Shown here piece after piece: positions 11,905-54,978 of a DNA stretch of 64,000 nucleotides (the first letter of the stretch is position 1; every line of letters starts with the position of its first letter). Origin of the DNA: Pseudomonadota bacterium (lineage in GTDB: Bacteria > Pseudomonadota > Gammaproteobacteria > JAKAQQ01). The DNA lies in assembly GCA_021839245.1 (NCBI GenBank), contig JAKCBQ010000005.1, forward strand, positions 4,043 through 68,042, read 5' to 3'. A program made the translations under genes and the position numbers. The notes beneath the pieces were generated by a model that saw only the letters and a list, made by a program, of their open reading frames with translations, did not search any database and was not told where the DNA came from.

Positions 11905-13749
11905 TTGCCGGAGGAAGCCGACGTCATCGTCGTGGGAGGTGGTCACGCGGGGACGGAAGCCGCTTCGGCCGCCGCTCGCTTGGGCTTGCGGACCATTCTC
12001 ATCACGCAAAGTCTCGACACCCTCGGCCAAATGAGTTGCAACCCTGCGGTCGGGGGGGTCGGCAAGGGTCATTTGGTGCGCGAGATCGACGCGCTCGGTG
12101 GGGTGATGGGTTGGGCGGCCGACCGTGCTTGTATCCACGGACGGGTTCTCAATACGCGCAAGGGACCAGCCGTCCAAGCGACACGCCTTCAATGCGATCG
12201 GGTTCTCTACCGGGCTCTTGTGCGCGCTCGGCTGGAATCTCATTCCGAGCTGCGTTTCGTCCAGCAGGGAGTAACAGATCTTCTCCTGGAAGGCGAACGC
12301 TGTACGGGCGTGGTCACCGGTCTCGGGATTCGGCTGAGAGCGCGCACGGTGGTGCTGACCACCGGAACGTTCCTTTTGGGTCGACTTCACGTCGGTCAAT
12401 GGCAGGGCGAAGGCGGACGAGCCGGCGACCCTCCGGCGCAACATCTTGCACGGCGCCTGCGGGAATTGCCTCTGCGGGTGGGCCGACTGAAGACAGGTAC
12501 CCCGCCACGTTTGGACGGTCGGACCATCGATTTTTCGGGTCTCGAGGTCCAACCTGGCGATGAGCCGCCCCCGTGGTTTTCGTTCGACGGACCGCCAAGC
12601 AAGCGCCCACGCCAGGTGTCTTGCCATCTGACCCGAACTCGGACCGAGACGCACGAGATCATCCGTGCCGCCTTGGATCAATCGCCGGTCTACGCGGGTC
12701 GGATTGAGGGGGCCGGTCCGCGATACTGCCCGTCGATCGAGGACAAAGTCGTGCGTTTCGCCGATAAGACAGGCCACCAGATTTTTCTTGAACCCGAGGG
12801 GCTCGAAACCACAGAGATCTACCCCAACGGCGTTTCAACCAGTCTGCCCTACGATGTCCAGTTGGCGTTTCTGCGTACCATTCCCGGACTCGAAAAGGTC
12901 GTTATCACCCGACCGGGCTACGCGGTCGAATACGATTACATGGATCCCCGCGATCTGCATCCTTGGTTGGAGAGTCGGGTGGTCGGCGGATTGTTCTTGG
13001 CCGGCCAGATCAACGGCACGACGGGGTACGAAGAGGCCGCCGCTCAAGGGCTTCTTGCGGGATTGAACGCGGGACGAATGGCCCGCGGACTCTCACCGTG
13101 GTGGCCCGAGCGCGAGCGGGCGTACCTTGGCGTGCTGGTCGACGATCTTCTTACGCAGGGCGCTCCCGAGCCGTACCGGATGTTCACAAGCCGGGCCGAG
13201 TACCGTCTGTGGCTTCGTGAGGATAACGCCGACGAACGGCTCACACCTCAAGGCCGCGAGCTGGGGCTCGTCGATGACGAACGCTGGCGTGTCTTTGTCC
13301 GCAAACAGGAGCGCATCACCGACGCCCTCGAGACTCTCGCGCGTGTGGCGACGCCCTCGGGGGGTTCCCGAACGCCCGTCGAGGTTCTTGCTTCCCCCGA
13401 AAGCGAGTACGAAACTCTTCGTCGGCATTATCCTGACCTGCCGGGCCTTGAGGGTGAAGAAGCGCGCGGCGTCGCCATTCGCCTGCGTTATCGGGGGTAT
13501 CTCGAACGGCAGCGAGCCGAAATCGAACGCTGCCGTGAATTTGCCGCCGAACCTCTCCCGCCGGATCTCGATTACGCCGCGCTGCCCGGGCTGACGAACG
13601 AGGCACGGATCCGGCTTCTCGAACGCCGTCCGCGGACGGTGGGTGAGGCATCTCGGCTGCCCGGCATCACACCGGCGGTCATCACGATTCTCGTCGCGGC
13701 CAGCCGTCGCCGCGCATCTCGAGGCGAACGCCTCACGGTGCGGCCGTGA
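11905..13749 (+). CDS. mnmG: tRNA uridine-5-carboxymethylaminomethyl synthesis enzyme MnmG (GidA)
   Basis: FAD-binding [14 protein letters not shown]. 614 aa. TTG start by the ORF tool, so the exact start is uncertain. Confidence 0.92.
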
Positions 13750-14753
13750 CGGCGTTCCCGCCCTCGCCCGATATTCCTCTCGCAACGGGGGATGGGCCAA
13801 CAGCGCCTCGGGTGGACCCTTTTGGAGTGGGGATTGTGGACGCGCATCACGTCAGACCGGGTGTTCTTGCGTGTCATGTTCTGCGCTCTGGGCGTGATCT
13901 CGGTCTTATCGACGTAGGTCCTAACCCTTCGGTGCCACACGTTCTCGCCGGACTGGCCAGTCTTGGTCTTGAGCCCACCGGGGTGACCCACCTTTTTGTG
14001 ACCCATGTCCATCTCGATCACGCCGGGGGTGTCGGCCGGATCCTGTCCGAGCTGCCGCGCGCGCGGGTTTACGTCCACCCTGCGGGTGCCCGGCATTTGG
14101 CACGCCCGCAACGGCTCGAGCAGGCGACGAGGGAGGTTTACGGAGACGCTCGCTACGAGCGTTATTTCGGCGCTCTTATTCCCGTGCCGGAGGAGCGAAT
14201 GACGAGTGTCGCGGACGCGGAAGCCATCGTCTTTGGAGAGACGCGACTGCGTGTTCTGCACACTCTGGGTCATGCGCGGCACCACTACTGTTTGCATGAC
14301 GAGGAGGGCGGTCTCGTCTTTGCCGGGGACAACTTCGGGATCGCCTATCGGGCTCTCGTAACCGAGCAAGGTTCGTTTGCGTTCCCCTCGACAACGCCGA
14401 CTCAGTTTGACCCTGATGAGGCGCGTTTGAGCCTGGAACGTCTTCTGGCCTTGAACCCACGGGCGCTCTATGTCGCGCATTACAGCCGCATCGACGAGCC
14501 CGAGCGTGTGGGCCGGGAATTGGTGGCCGACCTTGCCGCCTACGTCCGCATCGCGCGCGAACACGCTTCGGAACGAGCCGGCTCAGCCCGGACGGAACGC
14601 CTGCGGAACGCTCTTGCGAGCTACACGCTCGGGCGACTGCGTGCGCACCGCTGCGCGCTTTCCGAAGAGACCATCGGCGAGTTGCTTTCCACGGACCTCG
14701 AGCTCAATGCGCTCGGACTGGACCACTGGCTCACACGGCTCGATTCGGAATGA
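13746..14753 (+). CDS. MBL-fold metallo-hydrolase
   Basis: HVHLDHAGG (HxHxDH) metallo-beta-lactamase motif. Start overlaps the mnmG stop. First gene of the inserted block. Confidence 0.7.
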
Positions 14754-15775
14754 ATCTTTCCCTGCCTCCGGGGCGTGCTCTTATACTGAGTCTGGAGGAG
14801 GGAGCCGTGCGAGCGCAGGTGGTGACGCAAACACCGCCCCATCCCGGCGAAGGGGAACTGCTCGTCCGCGTCCTCTATTCGGCCATCAATTACAAGGACG
14901 CCCTTGCGGTGAGTGGGCGGGGTCGGATTCTGCGTCGGAGTCCACTCATCGGAGGCATCGACGCGGTGGGCATCGTCGTGGCAAGTCGTGCTCACGGCTG
15001 GACGCCGGGGACCGTCGTCGTGGCCGCAGGGGGAGGACTCGGGGAAGAGCGGGACGGTGGCTACGCCGATTATCTCTCCGCACCGGCCACCATCCTGACA
15101 CGTGTTCCGGAGGGCTTGAACCCGTTCGAGGCCGCCGCTCTGGGAAGCGCGGGACTCACCGCCGCGCTGGTTCTCGAGCGACTGGAGCAAGCCGGTCTCA
15201 GACCCGAGCAGGGCACGGTGCTCGTTACCGGGGCGAGCGGCGGCGTCGGCAGTTTCGCCATCGATCTCTTCACCCGGGCTGGCTACCACGTGGTTGCCAT
15301 GAGCGGACGGGAGGAACTGCGTGAGTATCTGACAGCTCTTGGAGCAGTGGAGGTCATTGCACCGCCTCAATCCGCTGCGGCTCCGGTCGGTTTGGCTTCG
15401 GCCCGCTGGTCGGCGGCCGTCGACAATGTGGGTGGACAGACGTTGGCCTGGATCCTCGAGCGCATCCGACGTGGGGGCAAGGTGGCCGCCGTCGGGATGG
15501 CGGCGAGCAGCACCGTCACTCTAAGCATCTTCCCCTTGATCCTGCGTCAGGTGGATCTCTTGGGCGTGAATTCGACCGAGGTTGATCACGAGCGACGAGC
15601 CTCCCTCTGGGCGCGTTTGGCCGGCCCATGGCGTCCCAGACATCTCGATCGGATTGCGGCTCGAACTGTCGGTTTTGACGAGATTCCCGGAGCCGTTGAC
15701 GACGTTCTCGAGCGCCGTCACCACGGACGGATTGTCGTTGGCCTCGGAGGCGGTGTCGCAGAGTCCGCGTGTTAG
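14750..15775 (+). CDS. acuI: YhdH/AcuI-family NADPH-dependent acrylyl-CoA reductase / quinone oxidoreductase
   Basis: Aligns throughout with E. coli YhdH (SAINYKDALA, VLVTGASGGVGS, GGKVAAVGMA). MDR superfamily. Confidence 0.75.
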   Translation: MNLSLPPGRALILSLEEGAVRAQVVTQTPPHPGEGELLVRVLYSAINYKDALAVSGRGRILRRSPLIGGIDAVGIVVASRAHGWTPGTVVVAAGGGLGEERDGGYADYLSAPATILTRVPEGLNPFEAAALGSAGLTAALVLERLEQAGLRPEQGTVLVTGASGGVGSFAIDLFTRAGYHVVAMSGREELREYLTALGAVEVIAPPQSAAAPVGLASARWSAAVDNVGGQTLAWILERIRRGGKVAAVGMAASSTVTLSIFPLILRQVDLLGVNSTEVDHERRASLWARLAGPWRPRHLDRIAARTVGFDEIPGAVDDVLERRHHGRIVVGLGGGVAESAC

Positions 15776-15825
15776 AATCTGAGACATTCACCGAGTCCTC
15801 GTGATCGTCTCGTGATCGTCCGCCC

Positions 15826-16731
15826 ATGACGAAGATTCCTTCGCTCCACGATGCGCTTGCCCGGGAGCAACCCTTGCAGGTTGTGGGTGTTGTCAACGCT
15901 TACTGTGCGCTCCTCGCTCGTCGTGCAGGCTTCCGGTCCCTTTATCTCTCGGGGGCCGGAGTGGCGAATGCCGATCTTGGTGTGCCGGATCTCGCGATCA
16001 CCACTCTTCATGATGTTGCGTCCCAAACCGATCGGATCACATCCGCCGTCGATCTGCCGCTGCTGGTGGACGCCGACACCGGCTTTGGGTCCGCGTTCAA
16101 CATCGCCCGCACGGTACGCACGCTTGAGCGGGCGGGGGCCGCAGGGCTTCATCTCGAGGATCAGGTTGCGGCCAAGCGCTGCGGCCACCGGCCCGGCAAA
16201 CGACTGGTGCCGTCCTCGGAAATGGTCGACCGCCTCAAGGCGGCTCTTGACGCACGCGAGAACCGCGCTTTCGTCATCATGGCCCGTACTGACGCGGCGG
16301 CGGTCGAGGGACTCGAGGCCGCGATCGATCGTGCCCGTCTCTACGTCGAGGCGGGGGCCGATATGATCTTCGCTGAGGCGCTCACGGACGAGGCGTCGTA
16401 TGTCCGCTTCACGAGCGCAGTTTCCGTCCCTGTTCTCGCGAACATGACCGAGTTCGGGCGAACGCCCCTCCTTGATTTGGCAACGCTCGGACGCCTCGGC
16501 GTGGCTCTTGCCCTCTATCCGCTCACGGCGTTCCGCGCGATGAGTGCCGCGGCGCAACACACCTATGAGGTGCTTCGTCGGGATGGGCACCAGCGTGCTC
16601 TTCTCAAAGCTATGCAGACACGGGAAGAGCTCTACGAAATCCTGAACTACCACGCCTATGAGCACCGCCTTGATCGTCTTTTTGGGGCTGGGAACGACGG
16701 TGACAGGCCAAACGAGGAGACTATATCGTGA
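15826..16731 (+). CDS. prpB: 2-methylisocitrate lyase
   Basis: ICL/PEPM family with the EDQV..KRCGH catalytic loop (HLEDQVAAKRCGH). Followed by prpC and prpD. Confidence 0.85.
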   Translation: MTKIPSLHDALAREQPLQVVGVVNAYCALLARRAGFRSLYLSGAGVANADLGVPDLAITTLHDVASQTDRITSAVDLPLLVDADTGFGSAFNIARTVRTLERAGAAGLHLEDQVAAKRCGHRPGKRLVPSSEMVDRLKAALDARENRAFVIMARTDAAAVEGLEAAIDRARLYVEAGADMIFAEALTDEASYVRFTSAVSVPVLANMTEFGRTPLLDLATLGRLGVALALYPLTAFRAMSAAAQHTYEVLRRDGHQRALLKAMQTREELYEILNYHAYEHRLDRLFGAGNDGDRPNEETIS

Positions 16732-17852
16732 GCAAAACCTCCATCAAGACCGGCGGTCTCGCCGGCGTGACCGCCGGCGAGACCGCCATTTCGACCGTCG
16801 GTAAGGAAGGTGTCGGACTGACCTACCGTGGTTATGCGATTGAGGAACTTGCGGCTCGTGCATCGTTTGAAGACGTGCTCTATCTCCTTCTCGAAGGGCG
16901 ACTGCCCTCTCACAAGGAGCGCACGGACTACGAGCGGAGACTTGCCGAGGCGGCGCCGTTGCCTGCGTCTCTTGCTTCCGTTCTCGAAAGGATCCCCGCG
17001 TCAACCCATCCGATGGACGTCTTGCGCACCGGCCTCTCCATGCTTGGGTGTCTCGAGCCTGAAAAAGACTTTTCCCAACTGAACGCTTGCGCTATCAGAT
17101 CCGTGGCTCTTGCGCCCGCCATCCTTCTTTACTGGTTTCGTTTTTGCCGCGACGGGAAACGGCTTGATACAACGAAGGGTGCGGGCCGGGTGGCACGACA
17201 TTTCCTGACCCTTCTTCACGACCGCGCCCCCACCAGCGAGCATGAGCGCGCCCTCGACGTATCGCTCATTCTCTACGCCGAACACGAATTCAACGCTTCG
17301 ACTTTCGCCGCGCGTGTGTGTGCCGGCACGCTTTCCGATTACCACTCGTGCATCACCGCCGCGGTCGGGACGCTCCGTGGGCCTCTCCACGGCGGGGCCA
17401 ATGAGGCGGCGATGGAGCTCATCGAACGTTTTGCGACGCCCGAAGAGGCCGCACGCGGCGTCCGTTCAGCCTTGGATCGCAAGGAGAAGATCATGGGGTT
17501 CGGGCATCGCGTCTATCGCGATCACGATCCCCGGCACGCGGTGATCAAGGAATGGTCGCGCCGCCTTGCAGCCGAGGTGGGTGACCGACGCCTTTTCCCC
17601 GTCTCGGAGGCGATTGAGCAGGTCATGTGGGAAGAAAAACGGCTCTTCCCTAATCTTGATTTCTACAGCGCTACGGCCTACCACTTCCTCGGTATTCCCA
17701 CTCCGCTGTTTACCCCGATCTTTGTCTGCTCACGTTTGAGTGGCTGGTCGGCCCACGTCTCCGAACAGCGGGCCAACAACCGTCTCATCAGACCCGATGC
17801 CGCTTATGTGGGGCCGGATCCCCGCCCGTTTCCTGAGGAAACGGAGCGGTGA
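16728..17852 (+). CDS. prpC: 2-methylcitrate synthase
   Basis: Citrate-synthase family (GFGHRVY, LYPNLDFYSA). Overlaps the prpB stop. Confidence 0.85.
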   Translation: MSKTSIKTGGLAGVTAGETAISTVGKEGVGLTYRGYAIEELAARASFEDVLYLLLEGRLPSHKERTDYERRLAEAAPLPASLASVLERIPASTHPMDVLRTGLSMLGCLEPEKDFSQLNACAIRSVALAPAILLYWFRFCRDGKRLDTTKGAGRVARHFLTLLHDRAPTSEHERALDVSLILYAEHEFNASTFAARVCAGTLSDYHSCITAAVGTLRGPLHGGANEAAMELIERFATPEEAARGVRSALDRKEKIMGFGHRVYRDHDPRHAVIKEWSRRLAAEVGDRRLFPVSEAIEQVMWEEKRLFPNLDFYSATAYHFLGIPTPLFTPIFVCSRLSGWSAHVSEQRANNRLIRPDAAYVGPDPRPFPEETER

Positions 17853-19264
17853 ACGTCTCGCCCACCTACGACCCGCTTCTCGTCGAACTCACCCGCTACG
17901 CGCACGGTCCGGAAGCGGGGGGTGAAGAGGCCTTCCGCAACGCACGGATCTCGCTTGGAGACGCTCTGGGTTGCGCCTGGCGGGCGCTGGCTCTCCCCGC
18001 CTGTCGGCGTGTTCTTCCCCCGCTCGGCCCTGTCGGTGCCCCGGCGGACGGACTCCCCGTCCCAGGGCTCCGCGTTTCGCTTGACCCGGTACAGGCGGCG
18101 TTCGCCCTCGGGACGATGGTTCGCTGGCTCGACTACAACGACACCTGGCTGGCCCGCGAATGGGGGCATCCTTCCGACAACCTTGGCGCGCTTTGGGTCG
18201 CAGCCCTCTTATCCTCCCGCGAAAAACGTTCGGCCGTGCCGATGCGCACACTGCTCGCCGCGCTCATCAAAGCCTACGAAATCCAGGGTGTTCTCGCCTT
18301 GGGTACGGCGCTCAATCTTTACGGATTCGATCATGTTTTCTACGTCCGCTTGGCGAGTACGGCCGTCTGCTCGGTGCTGTTGGGCACGGACGAGGAGACG
18401 ACGTTGCGTGCACTTTCGAATGCGGTCGTCGACGGCGCTGCGCTGCGCACCTACCGCCATGCCCCCAATACCGGATCGCGCAAATCCTGGGCCGCGGGCG
18501 ATGCCACGGCGCGCGGACTCTGGCACGTTCTTCTGGCCCGACGGGGAGAAATGGGATATCCCGGAGCGCTGAGCACCTCGACCTGGGGGTTTGAGGATGC
18601 CGTTCTCCGCGGTGAACGTCTCACTCTTCCCAGGGCGCTAAATTCGTATGTCATGGAAAATATCCTCTACAAAGTTTCCTATCCGGCCGAGTTCCACGCG
18701 CAGACGGCTGTGGAGGCGGCGGTGGCCCTTCACGCCGAGATCGGCGGTCGGACGGAAGAGATCGAAAGCATTGAGCTTGAGACTCAGGAAGCCGGTCTGC
18801 GTATCATTCACAAGACCGGTCCTTTGCGCAACCCCGCCGATCGTGACCATTGTCTCGAATACATGGTGGCCGTCGCTCTCCTGCGTGGCACCCTCAGGGT
18901 CGAGGATTATGAGGACGAGCAGGCCCGAGACCCCCGGATCGACACGCTTCGGGCACGGATGACCGTCCGCGAGAATCCGGCGTTCACCCGTGACTATCAC
19001 GACCCCGACAAGCGGACCATCCCCAATGCGGTTCACCTCGTCATGCGCGACGGTCGTCGACACGAACGGCTCATCGCGGCTCCTCTTGGCCACCGCTCGC
19101 GCCGCACGGAAGCCCGTCCTCTTCTGATCGAAAAGTTCCGGCACAACGCCGCCATGGCTTTGCCTCCCGAGCGAGTCGAGCGTCTCGCGGCCCTCTGCTT
19201 TGGTCAAGGAAATGAGCTCGACACGATGACGGTGGAAGACTTCGCCACTCTTCTCACCGCCTAA
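17849..19264 (+). CDS. prpD: 2-methylcitrate dehydratase
   Basis: MmgE/PrpD family, 471 aa. Overlaps the prpC stop. Confidence 0.85.
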   Translation: MNVSPTYDPLLVELTRYAHGPEAGGEEAFRNARISLGDALGCAWRALALPACRRVLPPLGPVGAPADGLPVPGLRVSLDPVQAAFALGTMVRWLDYNDTWLAREWGHPSDNLGALWVAALLSSREKRSAVPMRTLLAALIKAYEIQGVLALGTALNLYGFDHVFYVRLASTAVCSVLLGTDEETTLRALSNAVVDGAALRTYRHAPNTGSRKSWAAGDATARGLWHVLLARRGEMGYPGALSTSTWGFEDAVLRGERLTLPRALNSYVMENILYKVSYPAEFHAQTAVEAAVALHAEIGGRTEEIESIELETQEAGLRIIHKTGPLRNPADRDHCLEYMVAVALLRGTLRVEDYEDEQARDPRIDTLRARMTVRENPAFTRDYHDPDKRTIPNAVHLVMRDGRRHERLIAAPLGHRSRRTEARPLLIEKFRHNAAMALPPERVERLAALCFGQGNELDTMTVEDFATLLTA

Positions 19265-19272
19265 AGGGACCG

Positions 19273-20358
19273 GTGCCGACATTGCGCGGACGGACATCAC
19301 CCGACGAGGCGTTGCGCCGCCTCGAAAAAGTCGGGCTGATTCCACCCGCCATGCTCACGGATGTTCTCGAGCTGCTGCGCGAACGTGCAGCGGGAGGACC
19401 CGTTTATCGTTGGGAAATAAGAGGACAGTCACGTCTGGCCGTTTTCGATCCTCTTCTCGCGGGCGAGACAGCTCGTCCGCGCGTTCATGCTCTTGCTTTT
19501 CCGCGGCCGCATGGGCCGCGCGAACGGCGCTGGGCCTCGTCTTTTGTGGCCGAGTCGGTGCACGGTGGTGGTCTGCGGACCACACGATTGTCCGAGGCGG
19601 CGGAAAGCGCCTGGAATAGCCTTCGTCAAAGCCGTGCACGAGCAAGGCTTCTGGATGATCTTCTTGCCCGCTATAGCCCTGGAGCCCTCCGTCCGCTGGG
19701 GCGCGATCTTCGTGACCACGCTCATCGCCTCACCGTTTTCTGGACGGAGGGGCACGAGGATGAGGAGTCGGTGCGGTTGCTCGGTCGGGCGGTCGCGGGA
19801 GACGAGCTGGCCGCCCGGCTTTACCGTCAGCGTCTGGACGGTATTTCAGGCGCGGCTCACGACAGTGTCCTGTCCCGTCTTGGTGAGACGGATCCAGAGA
19901 CGCTCGATGACGCCGCTCTCTTTTCTGAGATCACCGCCCGTGTGTTCGGGGATCTCCTTGGCGCGATGGGCCGGGTCTTGTGCACTGTCCACCCCGGCGG
20001 CAGCGCGGCGTTGCTCGAACACGTCCTCTCGAACGATCCGCCGTGGTGGATCCATGTGCGTGAGACGACGCACGACTACCGCCTGGGTGTACACCGCTTG
20101 CCCCCAAGGGCCCGAATCTTCATCACTGTGCCGCTTCTGACTGTCGAGGGGACGGAATCTACGGTCTGCGGTCACATGCGCGCCCTTGCTCTCGGTGCCA
20201 ATCTTTGCCCCTCGCTGCTGCTCTTGCTCCAGCATGCCCGTGACCTTGATGATCGTTTGGCGGCGGTTGGTCGCCTCGAGCCAGTTCTGTCCGTACATTT
20301 CATCGAAGCCAACGGCGCCAGCGTTTCGGACACGATGGGCGTTCATGTCCGCCGATAA
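19273..20358 (+). CDS. Hypothetical protein, fourth gene of the prpBCD operon (unknown family)
   Basis: 361-aa ORF starting 9 bp after the prpD stop on the same strand. No motif I can assign. Confidence 0.5.
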   Translation: MPTLRGRTSPDEALRRLEKVGLIPPAMLTDVLELLRERAAGGPVYRWEIRGQSRLAVFDPLLAGETARPRVHALAFPRPHGPRERRWASSFVAESVHGGGLRTTRLSEAAESAWNSLRQSRARARLLDDLLARYSPGALRPLGRDLRDHAHRLTVFWTEGHEDEESVRLLGRAVAGDELAARLYRQRLDGISGAAHDSVLSRLGETDPETLDDAALFSEITARVFGDLLGAMGRVLCTVHPGGSAALLEHVLSNDPPWWIHVRETTHDYRLGVHRLPPRARIFITVPLLTVEGTESTVCGHMRALALGANLCPSLLLLLQHARDLDDRLAAVGRLEPVLSVHFIEANGASVSDTMGVHVRR

Positions 20359-20469
20359 GCCCGTCCTCGTCCAAGGTCACGATCGAGACGGCCAGGAGAA
20401 CATGTCGAGCTTTGCTAGAATGAGCCCGGCGCCCCCGGGCGCTCTTTGAAACCTCTTGGAGATGCACGT

Positions 20470-20904
20470 ATGACTCGTGGCCCACATTCGCGTACGGTCC
20501 TGGCCTTGCTGGGAATGTTGCTGCTTCCGGCGCTTCACGCCACCCCTATGCTTCGGTCCGGACTCTGGCGCTACGACATTCATATTCTCAGCGGTGGTCA
20601 CAACACCAGCACCCATACGCTAGAGCATTGCTACAAGAAGCCCCGACTTCTGAAACCCGACACACCCAAGGGGTGCGAGGCTCCGGCCCTCCATGTCCAA
20701 GGCACAACGGCACGGTGGGTGGTGGCATGCACGCTTGCAAACGGCATGGTTCATATCCGTTCGCGGGGGATCATTACCTATCTCGACAGAGGGAACGCCT
20801 TTCAGGAGTCCTCGGTGAGCCAGATCACAATGCCCACAACAGGAACCCGTGTCTTCCAAGTGCGCATGACTGGGACGCGGCTGGGGGCGTGCCCGAAAGG
20901 GTGA
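20470..20904 (+). CDS. Secreted DUF3617-like protein
   Basis: N-terminal signal peptide (LALLGMLLLPALHA, no lipobox Cys), then a GLW-containing domain that from memory resembles DUF3617 periplasmic proteins. A search is needed. Confidence 0.45.
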   Translation: MTRGPHSRTVLALLGMLLLPALHATPMLRSGLWRYDIHILSGGHNTSTHTLEHCYKKPRLLKPDTPKGCEAPALHVQGTTARWVVACTLANGMVHIRSRGIITYLDRGNAFQESSVSQITMPTTGTRVFQVRMTGTRLGACPKG

Positions 20905-21012
20905 TGGAATGAGGACGATTGCGCTCGGGCACGGCGTGGCTCGTGGCGCGTGCCAGGCCGCTTCGTGGTCCCTGCGTGATGGTGGCCGCCGCGCTCACGG
21001 CTCAGGCACAGC

Positions 21013-22734
21013 ATGACGCGCCCGCGGCGATCGGCGGGTTCCCTTTGGTGTTGGTGGTTTGCCGTCGTCCCGGCTCTGGCTGTCGCCCAGGCCAGCCCGC
21101 GCCCTGTTCCGGTGGGGGTGGAGAGTTGCGCACGGCTTCTCCCCCCAAAGGTTTCGATCAGCGCCGGGCCGTGGGCTTATGCGCATCTCTGGTCACTCCT
21201 CCAGAAGCAAGGCTACGTGTTGCGTGCGGTCCGGATCAGGCGCATCAATGTCTACAACCTTGCGCGTCCCGGCGAGAATCTCTGGTACACCCGCCTCGTT
21301 GACTTTCTGCACATTAAGACGCGCACCTCAACCGTCCGGGTGCTTCTTTTCCTCCATGCGGGACAAGCGGTGCGTGCCCGGACGGTCTACGAAAACGAAC
21401 GTTTCCTTCGTTCGTTGGGCTTTCTGCGCAACGCCGTCGTGGTGCCGGTGGATTGTCACCAGCGCAAAGTTACGGCCCGCGTGATCACCTACGACGCATG
21501 GACGCTCAAGCTTGATGTCAAATTTGGCCGCGTCGGAGGAAGCAACGAAACCCGCTACAAGTTGGTCGACACCAATTTTTTGGGATTCGGGAAAACGATT
21601 GGGATTGGCCGGGCCACGACGCTCGAGCGGTCTGAGACGATTTACGAATACAAGGATCCCGCTCTCTTGGGCAGCCGATGGCAAGGGCAGTTCTTTTACG
21701 ATCAACTTTCAGACGGGGCTCGCAGGATCGTCGATGTGGGTCGACCGTTTCTGCGCGATACCACACCCGTTGCATGGAATTTTGCCGAGTTGGATCAGCA
21801 AGAAAATCTGCAGATCTATGACCACGGTGCACTGGCCGATCTTGTGCCCTGGGACGAGAAATCACTGACAGCCAGTTACGGACGGCTTTATGCGGCGCGG
21901 GGGAGCACCTTTGATCGGCTGTTTCTTGTTGCGCGTGTGGAGGACGACACGTACGGCGTTCCTACCGCCGTCGATCAGCCCGCGCTTGACGCCACGATCC
22001 CGCAGCCCGATCGGCGGGAACACGGTCTCGGCCTCGGTTGGCAGAGTTATCAAGACCGCTTCGCGAGTTTCGAGAACATCCGCTATATCGGGCGTGTGGA
22101 AGACTACGATCTTGGCTGGAACATGTCCGCCCGTCTGCTTTTCGACCCGACATTTCTGGGCAGCTCCGCCACCGGCTGGGCCGGACGCTTCGCCGCGAGC
22201 GATGGATGGCGGGTGGGCTCGCACGGACTTTTGCTCGGCCACTTCACACTGGTCGGGCAGAGCCTCGACGGTCGCCTTGAGAACGGTGTACTGCGTACGG
22301 ACCTCACACTCTACGAGCAAACCTGGCCGTTTCAGACCCTTGTTCTGCACGGAGCGTACGCCGGCGAAGTCCATCCGTTTCCTGAAAATTTTCTCTATCT
22401 CGGAGGCGCAAACGGGTTGCGCGGTTATCCCAATTTCTTCCGGATTGGCACACAACGTTGGATCACGACCGTTGAAGACCGGATTGTGACTCCCATCGTT
22501 CTGTTGCACACGTTCGAGATCGGCTTCGTGGCGTATGCCGATGCCGGTGCCGTCCGCCGTCTCTCGCCGGGAGGCTGGAGCCGGATCTTCGCGGACGTCG
22601 GAGGGGGATTGCGCCTCGGCAATTTGCGAGGCGCCTACGGGGAAGTGCTTTACTTCACGCTGGCCTGGCCCCTCGTGCGTACACCCAATGTTCCGAGCCA
22701 TCAGTTCGTCGTCGGCGACCAGGTGCGGTTTTGA
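21013..22734 (+). CDS. Omp85-family outer-membrane beta-barrel protein (POTRA plus barrel; BamA/TamA/TpsB-like)
   Basis: 573 aa, signal peptide WWFAVVPALAVAQA, long beta-strand-rich C-terminus ending in the aromatic residue F (...VGDQVRF). No TpsA-like partner gene is adjacent. Confidence 0.65.
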   Translation: MTRPRRSAGSLWCWWFAVVPALAVAQASPRPVPVGVESCARLLPPKVSISAGPWAYAHLWSLLQKQGYVLRAVRIRRINVYNLARPGENLWYTRLVDFLHIKTRTSTVRVLLFLHAGQAVRARTVYENERFLRSLGFLRNAVVVPVDCHQRKVTARVITYDAWTLKLDVKFGRVGGSNETRYKLVDTNFLGFGKTIGIGRATTLERSETIYEYKDPALLGSRWQGQFFYDQLSDGARRIVDVGRPFLRDTTPVAWNFAELDQQENLQIYDHGALADLVPWDEKSLTASYGRLYAARGSTFDRLFLVARVEDDTYGVPTAVDQPALDATIPQPDRREHGLGLGWQSYQDRFASFENIRYIGRVEDYDLGWNMSARLLFDPTFLGSSATGWAGRFAASDGWRVGSHGLLLGHFTLVGQSLDGRLENGVLRTDLTLYEQTWPFQTLVLHGAYAGEVHPFPENFLYLGGANGLRGYPNFFRIGTQRWITTVEDRIVTPIVLLHTFEIGFVAYADAGAVRRLSPGGWSRIFADVGGGLRLGNLRGAYGEVLYFTLAWPLVRTPNVPSHQFVVGDQVRF

Positions 22735-35432: not shown

Positions 35433-35471
35433 CCGAGTCAGGGGAGAAGACTCGGCCTCTACTCTATACTT
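35433..35471 (+). terminator. Candidate intrinsic terminator downstream of glmS
   Basis: Perfect 7-bp inverted repeat ccgagtc-(9 nt)-gactcgg followed by a weakly T-rich tract (cctctactctatactt). Confidence 0.35.
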
Positions 35472-35538
35472 GAACCGGGTCGGACGTGACAACGCGCTAC
35501 GTTTCGATGGTCCGTGTGTTGACTTCAAGGAGTCCGTG

Positions 35539-38007
35539 ATGCCTCATTTTGCGACGTTCTGGTCCATCCTTTGGTGGGTCCTTTTTATCCCGCCTCTCCT
35601 CGTCGATTTCTACCGGCGAACCCGTCTTCCGTGGGTGAGCGCTCGCCTTCTTCTCCTCCTCGTCCTGGCCAGCCTCGTCCCGACGATGCCCGCCGGAATC
35701 CTGTGGGCTCTGTGGATCGTGGTGGGGCTGGCTCTTCTTCTTCTCCATACGCCCCCGCTGCGGCGCCTCGTTCTCACGGGCCCCATCTTCGCGCTCTACC
35801 GACGGGTTCTGCCGGCGATGTCTGCGACGGAGCGCGAGGCCTTGAACGCGGGGGATGTCGGTTGGGAGGGAGAACTTTTCACGGGTCGCCCCCACTGGGA
35901 GAAACTCCACGCGCTCCCGTCCGCTCGCCTGAGCCCCGAGGAACAAGCCTTTCTTGACGGACCCGTCGAAGAGCTCTGCGCCCGTCTTGACGACTGGAAA
36001 ATCACGCACGAATGGGGGGATCTCCCGCCCGAGATCTGGACGTTTCTCAAAGAGAAGCGGTTCTTCGCGATGATTATTCCGAAAATCTACGGGGGACTGG
36101 AATTTTCGAATTACGCACATTCCGAAGTTCTGTTACGGATCGCCTCACGCAGCATGACCGCGGCTTCGGTCATCGCCGTTCCCAATTCGCTCGGCCCGGC
36201 GGAACTCCTGCTTCACTACGGGACCGAGGAACAGAAAAGCCACTATCTGCCACGCCTCGCTCGCGGCGAGGAGGTGCCGTGCTTCGCCTTGACCGCGCCT
36301 GCGGCAGGTTCCGACGCCGCCTCAATGCTGGATCGGGCCGTGGTGATCCGTGAGCGTCGCGACGGGCGCGAGGTTCTCGCTCTTCGTCTCGATTTCGACA
36401 AGCGCTACATCACGCTCGCGCCCGTGGCGACCGTGATTGGCCTGGCCGTTCGTGTGTTCGATCCCGATCGTCTCCTCGGCGGTGATGTCGATCGCGGGAT
36501 CACCTGTCTTCTGCTCCCGCGGACGACGCCTGGGCTCGAGATCGGACGCCGACACTTTGCACTGAACACACCGTTTGCGAACGGACCGGTACGCGGGCAC
36601 GGCCTCGTCGCTCCGCTCGACGCGGTGATCGGCGGGGAGAAAATGATCGGTCAGGGCTGGCGCATGCTCATGGAGAACCTGGCCGCGGGGCGGTCGATCT
36701 CACTGCCTTCAAATGCCACCGGCGCGGCCAAGCTGGCGGTGCGGACAAGCGGGGCTTATGCCCGTGTGCGCCGTCAATTCCACGTTCCGATCGCCCGTTT
36801 CGAGGGGGTGGCTCAGGTTCTCGCGCGGATGGGCGGCACTCTCTACGCTATGGATGCCGTTCGTGCGGTGACTCTGGCCGCTTCCGACGCTGGAGGGCGC
36901 TCCGCCGTCACGTCGGCGATCGTCAAGGCGCAAGTCACCGAGATGGGTCGTCGGATTGCGATGGACGCGATGGACATCCACGGCGGCAAGGGCATCATGC
37001 TCGGGCCGCGCAATTACTTGGGACGCGGGTTCGAGGCCGTTCCTATTGCCATCACCGTCGAAGGGGCGAACCTCCTCACGCGCAACCTCATCATCTTTGG
37101 CCAAGGTGCGGTTCGGGCGCATCCTTACGTGTTCCGCGAGATGGAGGCCGCGCGCGACCCCGATCCCGCGGCCGGACGTCGCGCCTTCGATCGGCTCATT
37201 GTCGCCCACATCGGCTTTTTCCTCAGCAACGCGGTCCGAGCCTTTGTGATGGGTCTTCACGCCGCCCGCTTCGCCCCCAGTCCCGTCCGTGGCTCTCTCC
37301 GACGGTACTACCAGCATCTCAACCGCTACAGTGCGGCCTTCGCGCTTCTGGCCGACGGGAGCATGTTCGCGCTCGGCGGGAATCTCAAGCGACGCGAAGC
37401 TCTTTCGGCGCGTCTCGCCGACATGCTGAGTTCTCTTTACATCGCCTCGTGTGTGCTCAAGCATTACGAGGACCACGGACGGCCGGCGGAGGAGGAGGAC
37501 GCCGTGAGTTGGGCGGTTCGTGATCTCGTTTACGCCTTCCAGGAACAGGCGCACGGTCTTCTGCGTAATTTCCCCAACCGTTTCATGGCGGCGATTCTTC
37601 GCGTGGCCGTTTTCCCGACAGGTCGGAGCTACTCGGCCCCGTCCGACGCGGTTGGGTTCCGCGTCGCCGCCCGTCTGTGCGAGGATTCGCTCTTCCGGCA
37701 AACCCTGGTCCACGGTTCCTACGCCACCGAGCCTGAAGCCGGACACGTCGCTCTCCTTGAGGCCGCGCTTCGTCTCGCTCCGGAAGTCGAGGACATCGAG
37801 CGGCGCTTGCGGACGACGCTTGGAGAGGTCCCCCCCGGGGTCTTGGGCGAGCGGGCCCGCCTGAACGTGGCGGTCGAGCGGGGTCTTCTCGACAGTCGCG
37901 AGCGCGACCTCCTCGTCCGCTACTACGATCTGGTCGACGAGATCGTGGCGGTAGACGATTTCGATCGCCGTGAGCTTGGCACCCATCCACTGCCCTCCAG
38001 CGGCTGA
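35539..38007 (+). CDS. fadE: Acyl-CoA dehydrogenase FadE (large, about 820 aa)
   Basis: AAGGAG ribosome-binding site 7 nt before the ATG at 35539. N-terminal membrane-associated segment, central ACAD domain, long C-terminal DUF1974-like region as in E. coli FadE. Confidence 0.8.
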   Translation: MPHFATFWSILWWVLFIPPLLVDFYRRTRLPWVSARLLLLLVLASLVPTMPAGILWALWIVVGLALLLLHTPPLRRLVLTGPIFALYRRVLPAMSATEREALNAGDVGWEGELFTGRPHWEKLHALPSARLSPEEQAFLDGPVEELCARLDDWKITHEWGDLPPEIWTFLKEKRFFAMIIPKIYGGLEFSNYAHSEVLLRIASRSMTAASVIAVPNSLGPAELLLHYGTEEQKSHYLPRLARGEEVPCFALTAPAAGSDAASMLDRAVVIRERRDGREVLALRLDFDKRYITLAPVATVIGLAVRVFDPDRLLGGDVDRGITCLLLPRTTPGLEIGRRHFALNTPFANGPVRGHGLVAPLDAVIGGEKMIGQGWRMLMENLAAGRSISLPSNATGAAKLAVRTSGAYARVRRQFHVPIARFEGVAQVLARMGGTLYAMDAVRAVTLAASDAGGRSAVTSAIVKAQVTEMGRRIAMDAMDIHGGKGIMLGPRNYLGRGFEAVPIAITVEGANLLTRNLIIFGQGAVRAHPYVFREMEAARDPDPAAGRRAFDRLIVAHIGFFLSNAVRAFVMGLHAARFAPSPVRGSLRRYYQHLNRYSAAFALLADGSMFALGGNLKRREALSARLADMLSSLYIASCVLKHYEDHGRPAEEEDAVSWAVRDLVYAFQEQAHGLLRNFPNRFMAAILRVAVFPTGRSYSAPSDAVGFRVAARLCEDSLFRQTLVHGSYATEPEAGHVALLEAALRLAPEVEDIERRLRTTLGEVPPGVLGERARLNVAVERGLLDSRERDLLVRYYDLVDEIVAVDDFDRRELGTHPLPSSG

Positions 38008-39171: not shown

Positions 39172-40029
39172 ATGGACGAAACGCTCCTTGATCTCCTTTC
39201 TCCGGTCCTGACCGCTGTCCGTGCGGCCGGTCGGGCGATCCTTGACGTCTACGGGGGACCGTTCGAAGTCGCGAGCAAAGGAGACCGTTCTCCGCTCACG
39301 GAAGCCGATCTTCGCGCCCACGGGATCCTCCACGCGTCTCTTTCGTCGCTCGCTCCGTCTTGGCCGGTGCTGTCCGAGGAGGGGAGCGCTCCCGCCTGGG
39401 AGGTCCGGAAGACCTGGTCCCGCTACTGGCTCGTCGATCCGCTTGATGGTACGCGCGAGTTTGTGAAGAGGAACGGTCAATTCACGGTCAACGTGGCCCT
39501 GATTGAGGGGCAGAGAGCGCGGTTGGGAGTGATCCACGCCCCGGCGCTGGGCGAGGCTTACTTTGGCATCGCCAATCTTGGGGCGTTCGCCTCGAGAGGG
39601 GGTGAGCCGTGGGAACGTTTGCGCGGTGGGCACGCCCGAAAAGACGGCGAACTTCGTGTCCTCGCCTCACGATCCCACGACGATCACCGCCTGGAGGGGT
39701 GGCTCTCTCTTCTCGGTCCTCACCGCAGAGTCGGCCTCGGCAGCTCCCTCAAGTTCTGCCGTCTGGCCGCCGGTGAGGCCGATCTCTATGTTCGGCTCGG
39801 GCCGACCAGCGAGTGGGACACGGCCGCTGGTCAATGCATCCTTGAGGCGGCGGGAGGTTGGGTTTGCGATCTAGCAGGCCGTGCGTTGGCCTACAACACA
39901 CGCGAGGGATTACGCAATCCCTTTTTCGTTGCCGGACGTGGCCCCGAAGAGCGCACGTTGGTACGCTCCCGGTTTCTCCGCGATGAGAACGAGCTTGCGG
40001 CTAGTGGCGACCGAGGAGACGGTGCTTGA
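39172..40029 (+). CDS. cysQ: 3'(2'),5'-bisphosphate nucleotidase
   Basis: Inositol-monophosphatase-fold motifs WLVDPLDGTREF and WDTAAG. Start MDETLLDLLSPVL. Confidence 0.85.
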   Translation: MDETLLDLLSPVLTAVRAAGRAILDVYGGPFEVASKGDRSPLTEADLRAHGILHASLSSLAPSWPVLSEEGSAPAWEVRKTWSRYWLVDPLDGTREFVKRNGQFTVNVALIEGQRARLGVIHAPALGEAYFGIANLGAFASRGGEPWERLRGGHARKDGELRVLASRSHDDHRLEGWLSLLGPHRRVGLGSSLKFCRLAAGEADLYVRLGPTSEWDTAAGQCILEAAGGWVCDLAGRALAYNTREGLRNPFFVAGRGPEERTLVRSRFLRDENELAASGDRGDGA

Positions 40030-40576
40030 GGCTGTGGGTGGGAGGGTGGGAGCCCAGCCAGATTCGCAGCAAGGCTTCGTGGAAGCGGTGTCCCGGGAAA
40101 ACACCAATATTCTTGCTGTCGAGACGGACGGTGGTGCCTTTGCCCGGAACGTAGTCGAGCAAGACCACGTCGTGGTTATGGACACGAGTCCAGAGCGCGA
40201 TGAATCGATGAATTTCGGGGGCGAGCGCGCGACGGACGTTCGGAGGATTGTTTCGGCGGAAGCCCGATTTCCAGGCCGAGACGAGGCTGCCGTGACCCAC
40301 GCCACGCAGAAAATCCATCACGATCCTGTCCGGGCCGTGCTCGGCCAAAGCCACGTGGGCGCTGTGGGTGGGTGTGGGAAGGTATAGGGCGCCGACGTAG
40401 ACACGGAAGAAAATGGCGTAGTACCGAACCCCCGCTCCGTTGAGCGCCAGGGTGCGCCCGCCGACCGTGACCGTCCGCGGGAGTGTTCGGGAGGCGATGG
40501 TGATCGTCGCGGGAGACGCCCGGAGTGCCGGAGCGAGAAGAGCGGCGAAGAGGAGAATGACAAGATAACGTCGCAC
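40001..40576 (-). CDS. Chalcone-isomerase-like periplasmic protein
   Basis: Signal peptide MRRYLVILLFAALLAPALRA. LNGAGVR..YVGALYL pattern of bacterial CHI-like proteins. Convergent 29-bp overlap with cysQ. Confidence 0.55.
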   Translation of the reverse strand: MRRYLVILLFAALLAPALRASPATITIASRTLPRTVTVGGRTLALNGAGVRYYAIFFRVYVGALYLPTPTHSAHVALAEHGPDRIVMDFLRGVGHGSLVSAWKSGFRRNNPPNVRRALAPEIHRFIALWTRVHNHDVVLLDYVPGKGTTVRLDSKNIGVFPGHRFHEALLRIWLGSHPPTHSLKHRLLGRH

Positions 40577-53162: not shown

Positions 53163-53215
53163 CCAGGGAACGAGCTCGCCAAGCGGACGGCCCTCACGCG
53201 GTGGTCGGGCGAGTC

Positions 53216-53536
53216 TCAGCACAATGTCGACACCGGGGCGAACCCTTCCGGGCGGAAGCCGCAGCGACGAAGCCCCGCCCACGGTATGTAACGGTCGGCT
53301 TGTCGGACGTAGCGAAGGTACACGTTGCGCATCTGGGGATCGTGGCGTGCAATCCGCATGAGAAGCAGGTGGTTCGCAACCCACAACGGCGACAGGAGAT
53401 ACCAGTGCATCCCGAGGGTCAAGCCGGTCGCCAGCACAAGGTGCGCGAGTGCGAGATCGCGTTCTGCACCCAGGAAGAGTAGGGGTTCGCTAAGAACGCA
53501 GTACAGCGGACTACGGCGTGCGGATGCTGTGCTCAC
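53216..53536 (-). CDS. trbD: Conjugal transfer protein TrbD (VirB3 family)
   Basis: RHDPQMRNVYLRYVRQADRYIP matches TrbD (KSDPKMRHVYLRHRRYKPYYP). Start is a guess (GTG). Confidence 0.72.
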   Translation of the reverse strand: MSTASARRSPLYCVLSEPLLFLGAERDLALAHLVLATGLTLGMHWYLLSPLWVANHLLLMRIARHDPQMRNVYLRYVRQADRYIPWAGLRRCGFRPEGFAPVSTLC

Positions 53537-53540
53537 AGAA

Positions 53541-54913: not shown

Positions 54914-54978
54914 GGCGACTATTGCACACGCTTGGAGACGTTCCTGCGACAGGGAATCACGGCCGTTTCGGACGTGGT

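Follow-up and report, generated by a model that had tools for sequence, protein, structure and literature searches.

Immediately downstream of prpD, in the methylcitrate operon of an uncultured proteobacterium, lies an open reading frame, ORF361, whose product cannot be placed in any protein family by eye. The locus raises the question of what kind of protein this gene encodes, and whether it serves the metabolism of the operon that it follows. A reading of the sequence alone had described it as an uncharacterised gene coupled to prpD and as a candidate for a missing component of the methylcitrate cycle. The locus was analysed within a window of 64,000 nucleotides (the whole stretch of DNA under study), and its features are collected in Table 1.

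Table 1. Genes and predicted protein elements at the ORF361 locus, in window coordinates
Feature	Position	Strand	Evidence or remark
MBL-fold metallo-hydrolase	13746..14753	+	Pfam Lactamase_B, 82 bits
YhdH/AcuI-family acrylyl-CoA reductase	14750..15775	+	TIGR02823, 343.5 bits (cutoff 297)
prpB, 2-methylisocitrate lyase	15826..16731	+	NF008455, 459 bits (cutoff 353); TIGR02317, 410 bits (cutoff 354)
prpC, 2-methylcitrate synthase	16728..17852	+	TIGR01800, 465 bits (subfamily cutoff 421)
prpD, 2-methylcitrate dehydratase	17849..19264	+	NCBIfam NF006943, 628 bits (cutoff 575); TIGR02330, 587 bits (cutoff 458)
prpD-ORF361 spacer, 8 nt, AGGGACCG	19265..19272	+	Shine-Dalgarno-like AGGGA; translational coupling junction
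ORF361	19273..20358	+	361 aa (stop included), GTG start; predicted cytochrome P450 fold
RERRW motif (R83-E-R-R-W87), start of predicted C helix	19519..19533	+	Invariant in 8/8 sequences
Predicted I helix, residues 208-236, longest helix, FSEITARVFGDLLGAMGRVL	19894..19980	+	DSSP of models; family alignment
Predicted K helix and beta1-4/beta2/beta1-3 core, residues 245-283, AALLEHVLSNDPPWWIHVRETTHDYRLGVHRLPPRARIF	20005..20121	+	hhalign, invariant residues, models
Cys-pocket equivalent of FxxGxHxCxG, residues 305-315, LALGANLCPSL	20185..20217	+	Family alignment, hhalign

Coding evidence for ORF361

ORF361 has an in-frame codon score of 0.21, beside scores of 0.20-0.36 for its confirmed neighbours, and the two shifted forward frames score negative. 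Its frame is the sole full-length open frame in all seven loci examined, across which it is retained at 40-91% identity, and comparison with a 90%-identical homologue in locus L020 gives a dN/dS of 0.23. The codon score, the dN/dS and the open frame in all seven loci place ORF361 beyond chance: it is a real gene under purifying selection. An antisense ORF at 19846-20346 was rejected as a true gene because in locus L009 it stays open over no more than 87 codons; the openness of this frame differs among loci, as that of a GC-rich mirror frame would. A secreted or membrane location was also rejected, since inspection of the sequence by eye found no signal-peptide-like or hydrophobic N-terminus.

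Compared with prpBCD, the gene evolves at two to three times the rate. ORF361 identity is 41-62% between loci where that of PrpD is 77-87%, and its dN/dS of 0.23 compares with 0.08 for the prp enzyme comparison. Such fast evolution fits a dispensable accessory protein, even a non-catalytic one.

The junction with prpD and the operon

The prpD stop codon (TAA, 19262-19264) is followed after the 8-nt spacer by the GTG start of ORF361, which agrees with the start that had been placed 9 bp after the stop, counted from its last base. A TAA-(A/G)GGG-start arrangement is common to loci L001, L004, L008, L009 and L020, and in L022 the start of the homologue overlaps the prpD stop by 4 nt; across loci the spacing is thus either 8-11 nt with a Shine-Dalgarno sequence or a 4-nt overlap. 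Set against the 87-nt gap between ORF361 and the next downstream gene, this spacing places ORF361 in the prpBCD translational unit and not with the genes that follow. Scans for promoters and terminators detected nothing in the prpD-ORF361 junction or shortly after ORF361, with counts that did not exceed shuffle expectation.

The assignments of the upstream genes are supported by family models. The NCBIfam equivalog cutoffs are passed by prpB and prpD and the subfamily cutoff by prpC, whose product scores 549.2 bits against NF009006, slightly below the cutoff of 550. Both the N and the C domains of Pfam MmgE_PrpD are matched by PrpD. Because prpBCD pass these equivalog and subfamily cutoffs, and so belong to primary metabolism, a link to fungal secondary-metabolite clusters of citrate-synthase, PrpD-like and P450 genes was rejected. 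Overlaps of 4 nt join prpC to both prpB and prpD, the start of the MBL-fold gene to the mnmG stop, and the stop of the MBL-fold gene to the acuI-like start. The MBL-fold gene matches no NCBIfam model at its cutoff. The AcuI-like protein scores 275 bits against the AcuI equivalog NF051456, under the cutoff of 440; as a member of the AcuI family encoded upstream of prpB, it is predicted from its sequence to be a direct source of propionyl-CoA for the operon. Searches with Pfam and NCBIfam found none of prpE, acnD, prpF and prpR in the operon, in line with the earlier statement that prpE and acnD/prpF are missing from it.

Distribution of the ORF361 family

In the databases searched, the ORF361 family consists of about eight sequence clusters from one uncultured proteobacterial lineage. 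Six clusters were found among 5.8 billion proteins; 1.84 billion representatives, searched exhaustively with an HMMER profile, yielded three proteins, all of them family members; and a genome-contig scan located the family in two MAGs only. A pattern scan of metagenome contigs yielded no further homologues.

Every homologue found sits directly after prpD, as the proposed tight coupling would have it, in one shared origin-proximal block with the order mnmG-MBL-acuI-prpBCD-ORF-DUF3617-Omp85-like-rsmG. The larger block, from mnmG to the atp operon, consists of co-oriented, tightly packed and functionally unrelated genes (mnmG, rsmG, parAB, Omp85-like, DUF3617). Since all of these loci share synteny across about 20 kb and belong to one lineage, their adjacency to prpD counts as a single evolutionary observation rather than many. 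The suggested test of neighbourhood conservation was answered in two ways: where a homologue exists it is always beside prpD, but the homologue is absent from all three of the nearest outgroup prp loci examined. Co-occurrence with prpBCD was found in this single lineage and not across diverse lineages.

Sequence searches and predicted structure

Neither the single protein nor the family profile retrieved anything relevant from Pfam, NCBIfam or the PDB sequences, even at E≤10. The failure to recognise a family by eye is thus repeated by these libraries, and ORF361 is indeed an uncharacterised gene. The Pfam P450 model PF00067 matched none of seven family members, even at E≤10, and the sole matches of the PDB profile search, alpha-synuclein and AhpF at E about 1, are noise and include no P450. 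No match to ORF361 was obtained in Pfam or NCBIfam with the models for aconitase, PrpF (PF04303), AMP-binding and sigma-54 activator/HTH proteins.

Structures were predicted with AlphaFold for the window protein (pLDDT 68, pTM 0.67) and for its 45%-identical homologue P0007 (pLDDT 76, pTM 0.80), and compared with the PDB using Foldseek, the route that the sequence-only reading had recommended. At E≤1e-3 there were 1112 matches for the window protein and 1515 for P0007, and all 50 matches listed for each search are cytochrome P450s, aligned over nearly the full length. These matches have TM scores of 0.5-0.64 (best 0.63-0.64) at a Foldseek probability of 1.00, with an RMSD of 6.5-9 Å and a pairwise identity of 12-20%. 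The models were built on alignments of 7-8 sequences from one lineage, and the two are mutually non-independent. The five models of the second AlphaFold run range in pLDDT from 37 to 76, and in the window model residues 287-311, which span the predicted Cys-pocket and meander region, are of low confidence (pLDDT <50). The order of elements in the models is a long I helix, a K helix, four beta strands, a coil, the cysteine, an L helix and a terminal beta sheet, an order that is predicted to follow P450 topology. The predicted fold is that of a shortened and highly diverged cytochrome P450. With this fold and the blank family searches, ORF361 was rejected as an aconitase, PrpF, PrpE or regulator.

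Conserved motifs and profile-profile alignment

A comparison that does not depend on the models was made by aligning the ORF361-family profile with ten annotated plasmid P450s using hhalign. Residues 247-341 aligned with P450 columns 271-374 over 95 columns at E 6.3e-4, with a probability of only 28%. In this alignment C312 falls on the heme cysteine, G308 on the pocket glycine, L305 on the phenylalanine and R263 on an invariant P450 arginine. The score of 29.5 exceeds those of all 82 reversed or shuffled controls by a small margin (control maximum 27.8). A relaxed alignment is collinear over residues 26-342, at low confidence and with an uncertain register at the I helix. The global mode produced a meaningless alignment of seven columns, so that hhalign is informative in local modes only.

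The Cys pocket is the clearest of the P450-like elements. Residues L305, A306, L307, G308, L311, C312 and P313 are invariant, C312 in eight of eight sequences, and C312 (20206-20208) is predicted to be the heme thiolate ligand, placed directly before the predicted L helix (313-331). The start of this helix is residue 313 in the model of the window protein; in that of P0007 it is residue 316, following C315. The pocket deviates from the P450 pattern in having leucine for phenylalanine and S/P/A for the glycine two residues past the cysteine. Where the predicted C helix starts, RERRW is a candidate heme-propionate contact equivalent to the HxxxR/WxxxR of P450s, and in the relaxed, low-confidence alignment it faces the HxRLR region of the P450 profile; the same alignment puts an invariant R234 at the C-terminal end of the I helix. 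The segment that had been noted as conserved-looking, HPGGSAALLEHVLSNDPPWWIHVRETTHDYRLGVHRLPP, is present and maps to the predicted K-helix/beta-sheet core, where conservation within the family peaks at the block PPWWIHVRET.H.YRLG.

Other P450 hallmarks were not found. In the eight-sequence alignment the I-helix motif (A/G)Gx(D/E)T(T/S) is not recognisable in residues 208-236, DDAALFSEITARVFGDLLGAMGRVL; E219 is followed by I/L/V, and a conserved Thr/Ser after an acid is absent. The K-helix region, L-L-E249-H-V-L252-S253, has no canonical ExxR arginine, nor a conserved arginine in either register: hhalign puts H250 and S253 on the ExxR E and R positions, and in a register shifted by one residue E/D249 is conserved and the arginine position is L252 (Val in P0007). 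No PERF-type arginine was found by hhalign or in the family alignment, and no ferredoxin or reductase was found, either next to ORF361 or among larger ORFs of the window.

Discussion

The explanation that accounts best for these observations, and that is held to be fairly probable, is that ORF361 encodes a cytoplasmic, short and diverged member of the P450 superfamily, with heme-thiolate ligation through Cys312, and forms the prpD-coupled last gene of a lineage-specific acuI-prpB-prpC-prpD module. Its product is probably a lineage-specific accessory enzyme of the heme-thiolate type.

The proposal that ORF361 is a core methylcitrate component replacing AcnD/PrpF or PrpE, or else a prp regulator, drew on its tight coupling to prpD and on an operon without prpE, acnD, prpF and prpR; within the lineage, moreover, the gene is always found with prpBCD. 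The premise is flawed, however, as there is no gap to fill. In the E. coli/Salmonella-type pathway PrpD and the housekeeping aconitase perform the dehydration and rehydration, and AcnD/PrpF are an alternative to PrpD, not a partner that PrpD lacks. The AcuI family yields propionyl-CoA, and prpE is unnecessary if propionyl-CoA arrives directly, as the AcuI-family reductase is predicted to provide. None of the family models for such a component or regulator is matched, and the predicted fold is that of a P450. Restriction of ORF361 to one narrow lineage, with only about eight clusters in the databases searched, and its absence from the nearest outgroup prp loci imply that methylcitrate cycles normally run without it. 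ORF361 is not a core or generally missing enzyme of the cycle; distribution and fold largely refute that proposal, which has become extremely unlikely. The broader suggestion was of an accessory enzyme or regulator. An accessory part in propionyl-CoA metabolism, specific to this lineage, is possible; a regulator finds no support in the HTH searches or the predicted fold. ORF361 might also be a functional P450-type enzyme unrelated to propionate that happens to lie in the long co-oriented string from mnmG to atp. This block does pack together functionally unrelated genes, the linkage in a single lineage is phylogenetically one event, and a literature search returned no described P450 in a prp operon, only Mycobacterium cholesterol-related and other unrelated co-mentions. 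Such a passenger is nevertheless distinctly unlikely given the close spacing to prpD with its conserved Shine-Dalgarno sequence, as opposed to the wide gap downstream, and the survival of the prpD-ORF361 arrangement through divergence down to 41% identity.

Two further alternatives concern the protein itself. It could be a relic that keeps the P450 fold without heme chemistry and acts as a ligand or gas sensor, a scaffold, a chaperone or a binding partner, for instance of PrpD or of a further protein of the operon. This might be suspected from the loss of the ExxR and PERF arginines and of the I-helix threonine, the shortened meander, the absence of a redox partner nearby, a length of only 361 aa and an evolution faster than that of the enzyme neighbours. 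Yet LALG..LCP with C312, R263 and RERRW are invariant across sequences that are 40% identical overall, and invariance at the P450 heme- and propionate-contact positions is the pattern expected from heme retention; the dN/dS of 0.23 also reflects real constraint, and a relic is regarded as unlikely. The fold could, on the other hand, be an AlphaFold artefact of a very shallow alignment, in which case ORF361 would represent a new helical family. The MSAs of 7-8 sequences, the mean pLDDT of 68-76, the high RMSD and the failure of HMMER-level searches to reach any P450 all leave room for this view. It is very unlikely when weighed against two target sequences that gave one answer, with solely P450s among the matches listed of more than 1,000, against a model-free alignment that brings the Cys, Gly and Arg onto their P450 counterparts and stays collinear for about 300 residues, and against a secondary-structure order that matches P450 topology.

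As a diverged P450 at the end of the acuI-prpB-prpC-prpD module, ORF361 would be co-transcribed and translationally coupled with prpD. The protein would most likely bind heme through the invariant Cys312, having kept the Cys pocket and one heme-propionate arginine, and may have an accessory role in acrylyl-/propionyl-CoA metabolism, oxidising or rearranging a small acid or CoA thioester. Since it has no I-helix acid-alcohol pair, ExxR arginine or adjacent ferredoxin/reductase, non-canonical chemistry is likelier, if it is catalytic, than classical O2/NAD(P)H monooxygenation. The CYP152 peroxygenases, the CYP74 allene oxide synthases and P450nor work without an acid-alcohol pair and without redox partners. 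Examples of suitable chemistry would be a peroxide-driven or substrate-assisted oxidation, or reactions of the isomerase/dehydratase type, as in P450s that lack the acid-alcohol pair. A bolder version is decidedly improbable. In it, ORF361 founds a minimal, redox-partner-free heme-thiolate class whose direct substrate is a short-chain acid or CoA thioester from the acrylate/propionate/methylcitrate network, perhaps a toxic intermediate that is oxidised, decarboxylated or isomerised. If it were true, the lineage would possess a new enzymatic step in propionyl-CoA detoxification, and no functional P450 scaffold known would be smaller or more diverged.

Should the predicted fold be correct, ORF361 would lie at the edge of the P450 definition, retaining only the thiolate pocket and some of the heme-propionate cradle, and would help to define the minimal P450 scaffold. 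It would also be a heme-thiolate protein in a methylcitrate operon, for which the literature search found no precedent. Every sequence-based annotation pipeline tried misses ORF361, which would then illustrate how a known fold can lie concealed in a 'hypothetical protein' of a core-metabolism operon. For the methylcitrate cycle the outcome is negative, in that ORF361 fills no missing core step, and its practical weight is limited: the family does not extend beyond a handful of uncultured MAGs, and the evidence points to no particular substrate.

Comparison with known systems

The position of ORF361 at the end of the prpBCD operon, a frequent site of accessory prp genes, is one that it shares with prpE, acnD, prpF and prpR, to which it has no sequence or fold similarity.

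Among P450s, the cysteine is the only absolutely conserved residue, and A/P/S are tolerated two residues after it (PMC3990721). The Streptomyces CYP157 enzymes lack ExxR (EVLW/EQILW) and are described as functional in the passage of PMC3990721 that cites Rupasinghe et al. 2006. Such functional ExxR-less P450s mean that the missing ExxR does not exclude ORF361 from the superfamily. ORF361 has E-(H/R)-V-L at the corresponding place, a likeness of motif only: the CYP157 enzymes are otherwise ordinary P450s recognisable by sequence, unlike ORF361.

CYP152 peroxygenases such as OleT are without the conventional I-helix acid-alcohol pair, according to a passage of PMC10988616. Their carboxylic-acid substrates belong to the chemical class of the prp operon metabolites, an analogy of mechanism only. 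Their I-helix Arg-Pro signature is not evident in ORF361, and neither CYP152 nor CYP74 and P450nor show specific similarity to it or appear among the structural matches listed.

The top structural matches among those listed are CYP121, CYP175A1, CYP170A1, EryK, AurH, P450 BioI, P450cin and PtmB/GymB5. Bacterial class I P450s are longer (about 390-420 aa, against 361 aa), and ORF361 differs from them in having no ExxR arginine, PERF-type arginine or I-helix threonine, a shortened meander, apparently no J helix, and C-P-(S/P/A) in place of C-x-G. What it has in common with these enzymes is the predicted fold, a pocket of the form hydrophobic-xx-G-xxx-C before the L helix, an arginine after the K helix and a basic C-helix motif.

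ORF361 is a coding sequence coupled to prpD

ORF361, the 361-aa gene directly after prpD, is separated from the prpD stop codon (TAA, 19262-19264) by an 8-nt spacer, AGGGACCG, which contains the SD-like sequence AGGGA. This stop-SD-start arrangement is kept in all homologous loci, and in one of these (L022) the ORF start and the prpD stop overlap by 4 nt. By codon usage ORF361 looks coding: its in-frame codon log-odds was 0.21, compared with 0.20-0.36 in confirmed neighbours, and the two shifted forward frames were negative. Comparison with the 90%-identical homologue in locus L020 gave a dN/dS of 0.23 at dS 0.20 for ORF361, ~0.08 for prpB/C/D, 0.225 for rsmG and 0.37 for the DUF3617 gene. The sequence-only reading of a gene coupled to prpD is borne out by position, codon score, dN/dS and the conserved junction. 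Its remark that the protein fits no family also held: for every member of the family, searches of Pfam, NCBIfam and PDB sequences returned no matches even with the threshold relaxed to E<=10.

In the seven loci examined, only the ORF361 frame was open at full length in all (7/7). The antisense mirror frame was open for 87 to 371 codons depending on the locus, as is expected in DNA of 63% GC; this long frame is a GC-rich mirror-frame effect that could mislead gene callers. It lies at 19846-20346 (-) in the window, is stop-free across the whole gene in L004, L008 and L022, and reaches only 87 codons in L009.

Gene neighbourhood and distribution

Among 5.8 billion clustered proteins, homologues of ORF361 made up six clusters (41-99% identity). 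Of 1.84 billion representatives at 50% identity, three matched the family profile in an exhaustive HMMER search; all three belong to the family, and one (P0007) was new. ORF361 was found in two MAGs labelled 'Proteobacteria bacterium' in a one-genome-per-species scan (185,579 species), and a metagenome pattern scan gave no additional homologues.

Gene order in every locus is (yidC-mnmE)-mnmG-MBL hydrolase-MDR reductase-prpB-prpC-prpD-ORF-DUF3617-~570-aa protein-rsmG-parA-parB-atp operon, and the window also holds gyrB, dnaN, dnaA and mnmE. In Proteobacteria, mnmG and rsmG usually lie side by side. From the conserved order and these marker genes, the block is an insertion of eight genes that separates mnmG from rsmG beside the chromosomal origin; the related loci (L001-L009, L020-L022) all keep its arrangement. 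There are 4-nt overlaps between the MBL gene and the mnmG stop and between the 573-aa gene and the rsmG start, so that central-metabolism genes appear embedded within a housekeeping gene string. The 573-aa protein, 72-95% identical within the lineage and translationally coupled to rsmG, is possibly a diverged beta-barrel protein of the outer membrane.

Features of the window around ORF361
Feature	Position	Strand	Remarks
Eight-gene block	13746-22734	co-oriented	MBL hydrolase, AcuI-like reductase, prpB, prpC, prpD, ORF361, DUF3617, 573-aa Omp85-like
MBL-fold hydrolase	13746-14753	+	unclassified; directly upstream of AcuI-like gene
YhdH/AcuI-family acrylyl-CoA reductase	14750-15775	+	TIGR02823 (subfamily) 343.5 bits, cutoff 297
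prpB			immediate upstream group of ORF361; NF008455 459 bits, cutoff 353
prpC			between prpB and prpD; TIGR01800 465 bits, cutoff 421
prpD	ends 19264	+	NF006943 628 bits, cutoff 575
ORF361	19273-20358	+	361 aa, GTG start
DUF3617 protein	20446-20904		fast-evolving; precedes 573-aa gene
573-aa protein	21013-22734	+	no Pfam hit; faint NCBIfam Omp85/BamA similarity, E about 6e-4, far below cutoffs
FadE-type long acyl-CoA dehydrogenase	35470-38007	+	ACDH_C domain; just downstream of glmS
Chalcone-isomerase-like protein	40001-40576	-	near FadE-type gene
TrbL/VirB6-like	48885-49961	-	
TraG P-loop (VirB4-like)	50766-53384	-	872 aa
VirB11-type T2SSE ATPase	53840-54913	-	
TraG/VirD4 coupling protein	55377-57230	-	

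Identity of ORF361 was 62, 56, 54 and 41% where that of PrpD was 87, 82, 82 and 77%; on these comparisons it is evolving much faster than its neighbours within the lineage. A PrpD search showed a sharp break, with lineage PrpDs 79-99% identical and all others at most 59%. Of a constant pairing with prpD, one half stood: wherever ORF361 exists, prpD adjoins it. Three loci from among the nearest outgroups carry prpB-prpC-prpD (or prpD-prpB) followed by unrelated genes, with no ORF361 homologue. As ORF361 is confined to one narrow lineage, the adjacency counts as a single evolutionary event.

The AcuI-like reductase and MBL hydrolase directly upstream of prpBCD suggest that acrylyl-CoA, derived from acrylate, 3-hydroxypropionate or DMSP-type sources, is handled by the module besides propionate. 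With a FadE-type acyl-CoA dehydrogenase also in the window, propionyl-CoA could come from odd-chain fatty acids by beta-oxidation as well. Elsewhere in the window, type IV secretion and conjugation genes (~48885-57230, -) suggest an integrated conjugative element ~25 kb from the prp block.

ORF361 is predicted to adopt a P450 fold

The window protein was modelled with AlphaFold2 from a 7-sequence alignment (mean pLDDT 68, pTM 0.67). Foldseek returned 1112 PDB matches at E<=1e-3, and the matches listed were all cytochrome P450s (50/50), among them CYP121, OxyA, GymB5/PtmB, CYP175A1, CYP170A1 and EryK; these were essentially full-length, with TM up to 0.63, probability 1.00 and 9-18% identity. 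As a robustness check, P0007, at 45% identity the most divergent member, was modelled as well (pLDDT 75.7, pTM 0.80) and gave 1515 matches at the same threshold, with all those listed again P450s (TM up to 0.64).

Both models follow the P450 order of elements, with an N-terminal beta hairpin and a helical bundle before the predicted I helix (residues 208-236; 29-30 residues) and a short K helix (244-254). Four short strands (260-285) and a coil lead to the invariant Cys312, and right behind it come a predicted L helix of 19 residues (313-331) and a terminal beta sheet. The window protein stops right after the last predicted strand; P0003, P0006 and P0007 (L004/L005/L006 10001-11164; L009 874-2013) carry 7-21 extra non-conserved C-terminal residues past the family core. 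ORF361 very probably has a P450 fold, which would place it outside the prp enzyme families.

A model-free test used a profile of ten annotated plasmid P450 genes, for which a P450cam-type sequence served only as bait. Aligned with this profile in hhalign, the family gave a single local alignment (95 columns, E 6.3e-4, probability 28%) whose register is the one that the fold predicts. The K-helix region lay opposite AveExLR; PPWWIHVRET..YRLG..LPxGxRIF paired with the strands xxRxaxxDxxxxGxxIPaGxxV, putting R263 on an invariant P450 Arg; and L305-A-L-G308-A-N310-L-C312-P-S314 paired with F-G-x-G-x-H-x-C-x-G, putting C312 on the heme-ligand Cys. Relaxed settings gave a collinear alignment from residue 26 to 342, in which the family's invariant RERRW lies close to the HxxxR motif of the P450 C helix. 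In the control set-up the real score, 29.5, was higher than those of both reversed and all 80 shuffled controls by a small margin (maximum 27.8). Taken alone this signal would not convince; in its details it matches what the structural models show.

Proposed role and alternatives

ORF361 is on balance probably a diverged, shortened member of the P450 superfamily with heme bound via C312; heme binding as such is rather likely, and a function linked to prp is conceivable at somewhat less than even chances. It would be made stoichiometrically with PrpD from an acuI-prpBCD transcript and might be an accessory enzyme, probably of non-canonical chemistry, that oxidises or rearranges a small acid or a CoA ester linked to acrylyl-/propionyl-CoA metabolism.

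The alternatives partly overlap with this reading, differing from it in layer (fold, heme or function). That the protein is a heme-less relic with a P450 fold, serving as scaffold or sensor, is unlikely; the loss of several P450 residues speaks for it, the invariant Cys against. Somewhat less likely still is that it works as a true P450-type enzyme with no tie to propionate and is carried as a passenger in a long co-oriented origin-proximal gene string; the single evolutionary event speaks for this, the conserved prpD junction against. A modelling artefact concealing a novel fold is improbable; the modest pLDDT of the window protein speaks for it, the same fold for P0007 against.

The sequence-only reading had taken the absence of acnD/prpF and prpE to make a missing component plausible. 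That argument fails: on the PrpD route the housekeeping aconitase does the rehydration, AcnD/PrpF being an alternative to PrpD, and the 'alcohol dehydrogenase' upstream of prpB belongs to the YhdH/AcuI family, whose members yield propionyl-CoA without PrpE. Given its narrow distribution, the outgroup prp loci that lack it and the predicted P450 fold, the gene is very unlikely to supply a component that methylcitrate cycles generally miss, and a core component is the least credible alternative of all. A lineage-specific accessory role, resting on the tight coupling to prpD, is possible. No described prp operon with a P450 was found; among the matches listed, literature combining cytochrome P450, methylcitrate and prpD was Mycobacterium cholesterol-related or unrelated.

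Comparison with known P450s

The structural identity resolves an 'unplaceable' gene cleanly and somewhat surprisingly, although the family is tiny. By sequence it is an orphan; its predicted structure makes it a new and unusually reduced form of a kind that is very well known, and under the usual convention (identity below 40%) it would count as a new CYP family. At 361 aa it is shorter than ordinary P450s (about 390-420 aa), whose meander is ~9-15 residues longer; only ~7 residues lie between the predicted helices I and K, apparently leaving no J helix. The canonical ExxR Arg is absent, the region L-L-E249-H-V-L252-S253 having no conserved Arg in either register, and the family alignment shows neither a recognisable PERF-type Arg nor, in the I helix, a Thr/Ser after the conserved acid. 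The Cys pocket ends in C-P-(S/P/A), unlike the typical C-x-G. Neighbouring genes and the larger ORFs of the window include no ferredoxin or reductase gene. Among P450 residues only the Cys is conserved without exception, A/P/S occur two residues after it, and Streptomyces CYP157 P450s are functional with EVLW/EQILW in place of ExxR (PMC3990721); P450 peroxygenases lack the acid-alcohol pair (PMC10988616). These precedents make the departures of ORF361 compatible with a working heme-thiolate protein, though with such departures classical O2-dependent monooxygenation seems less likely.
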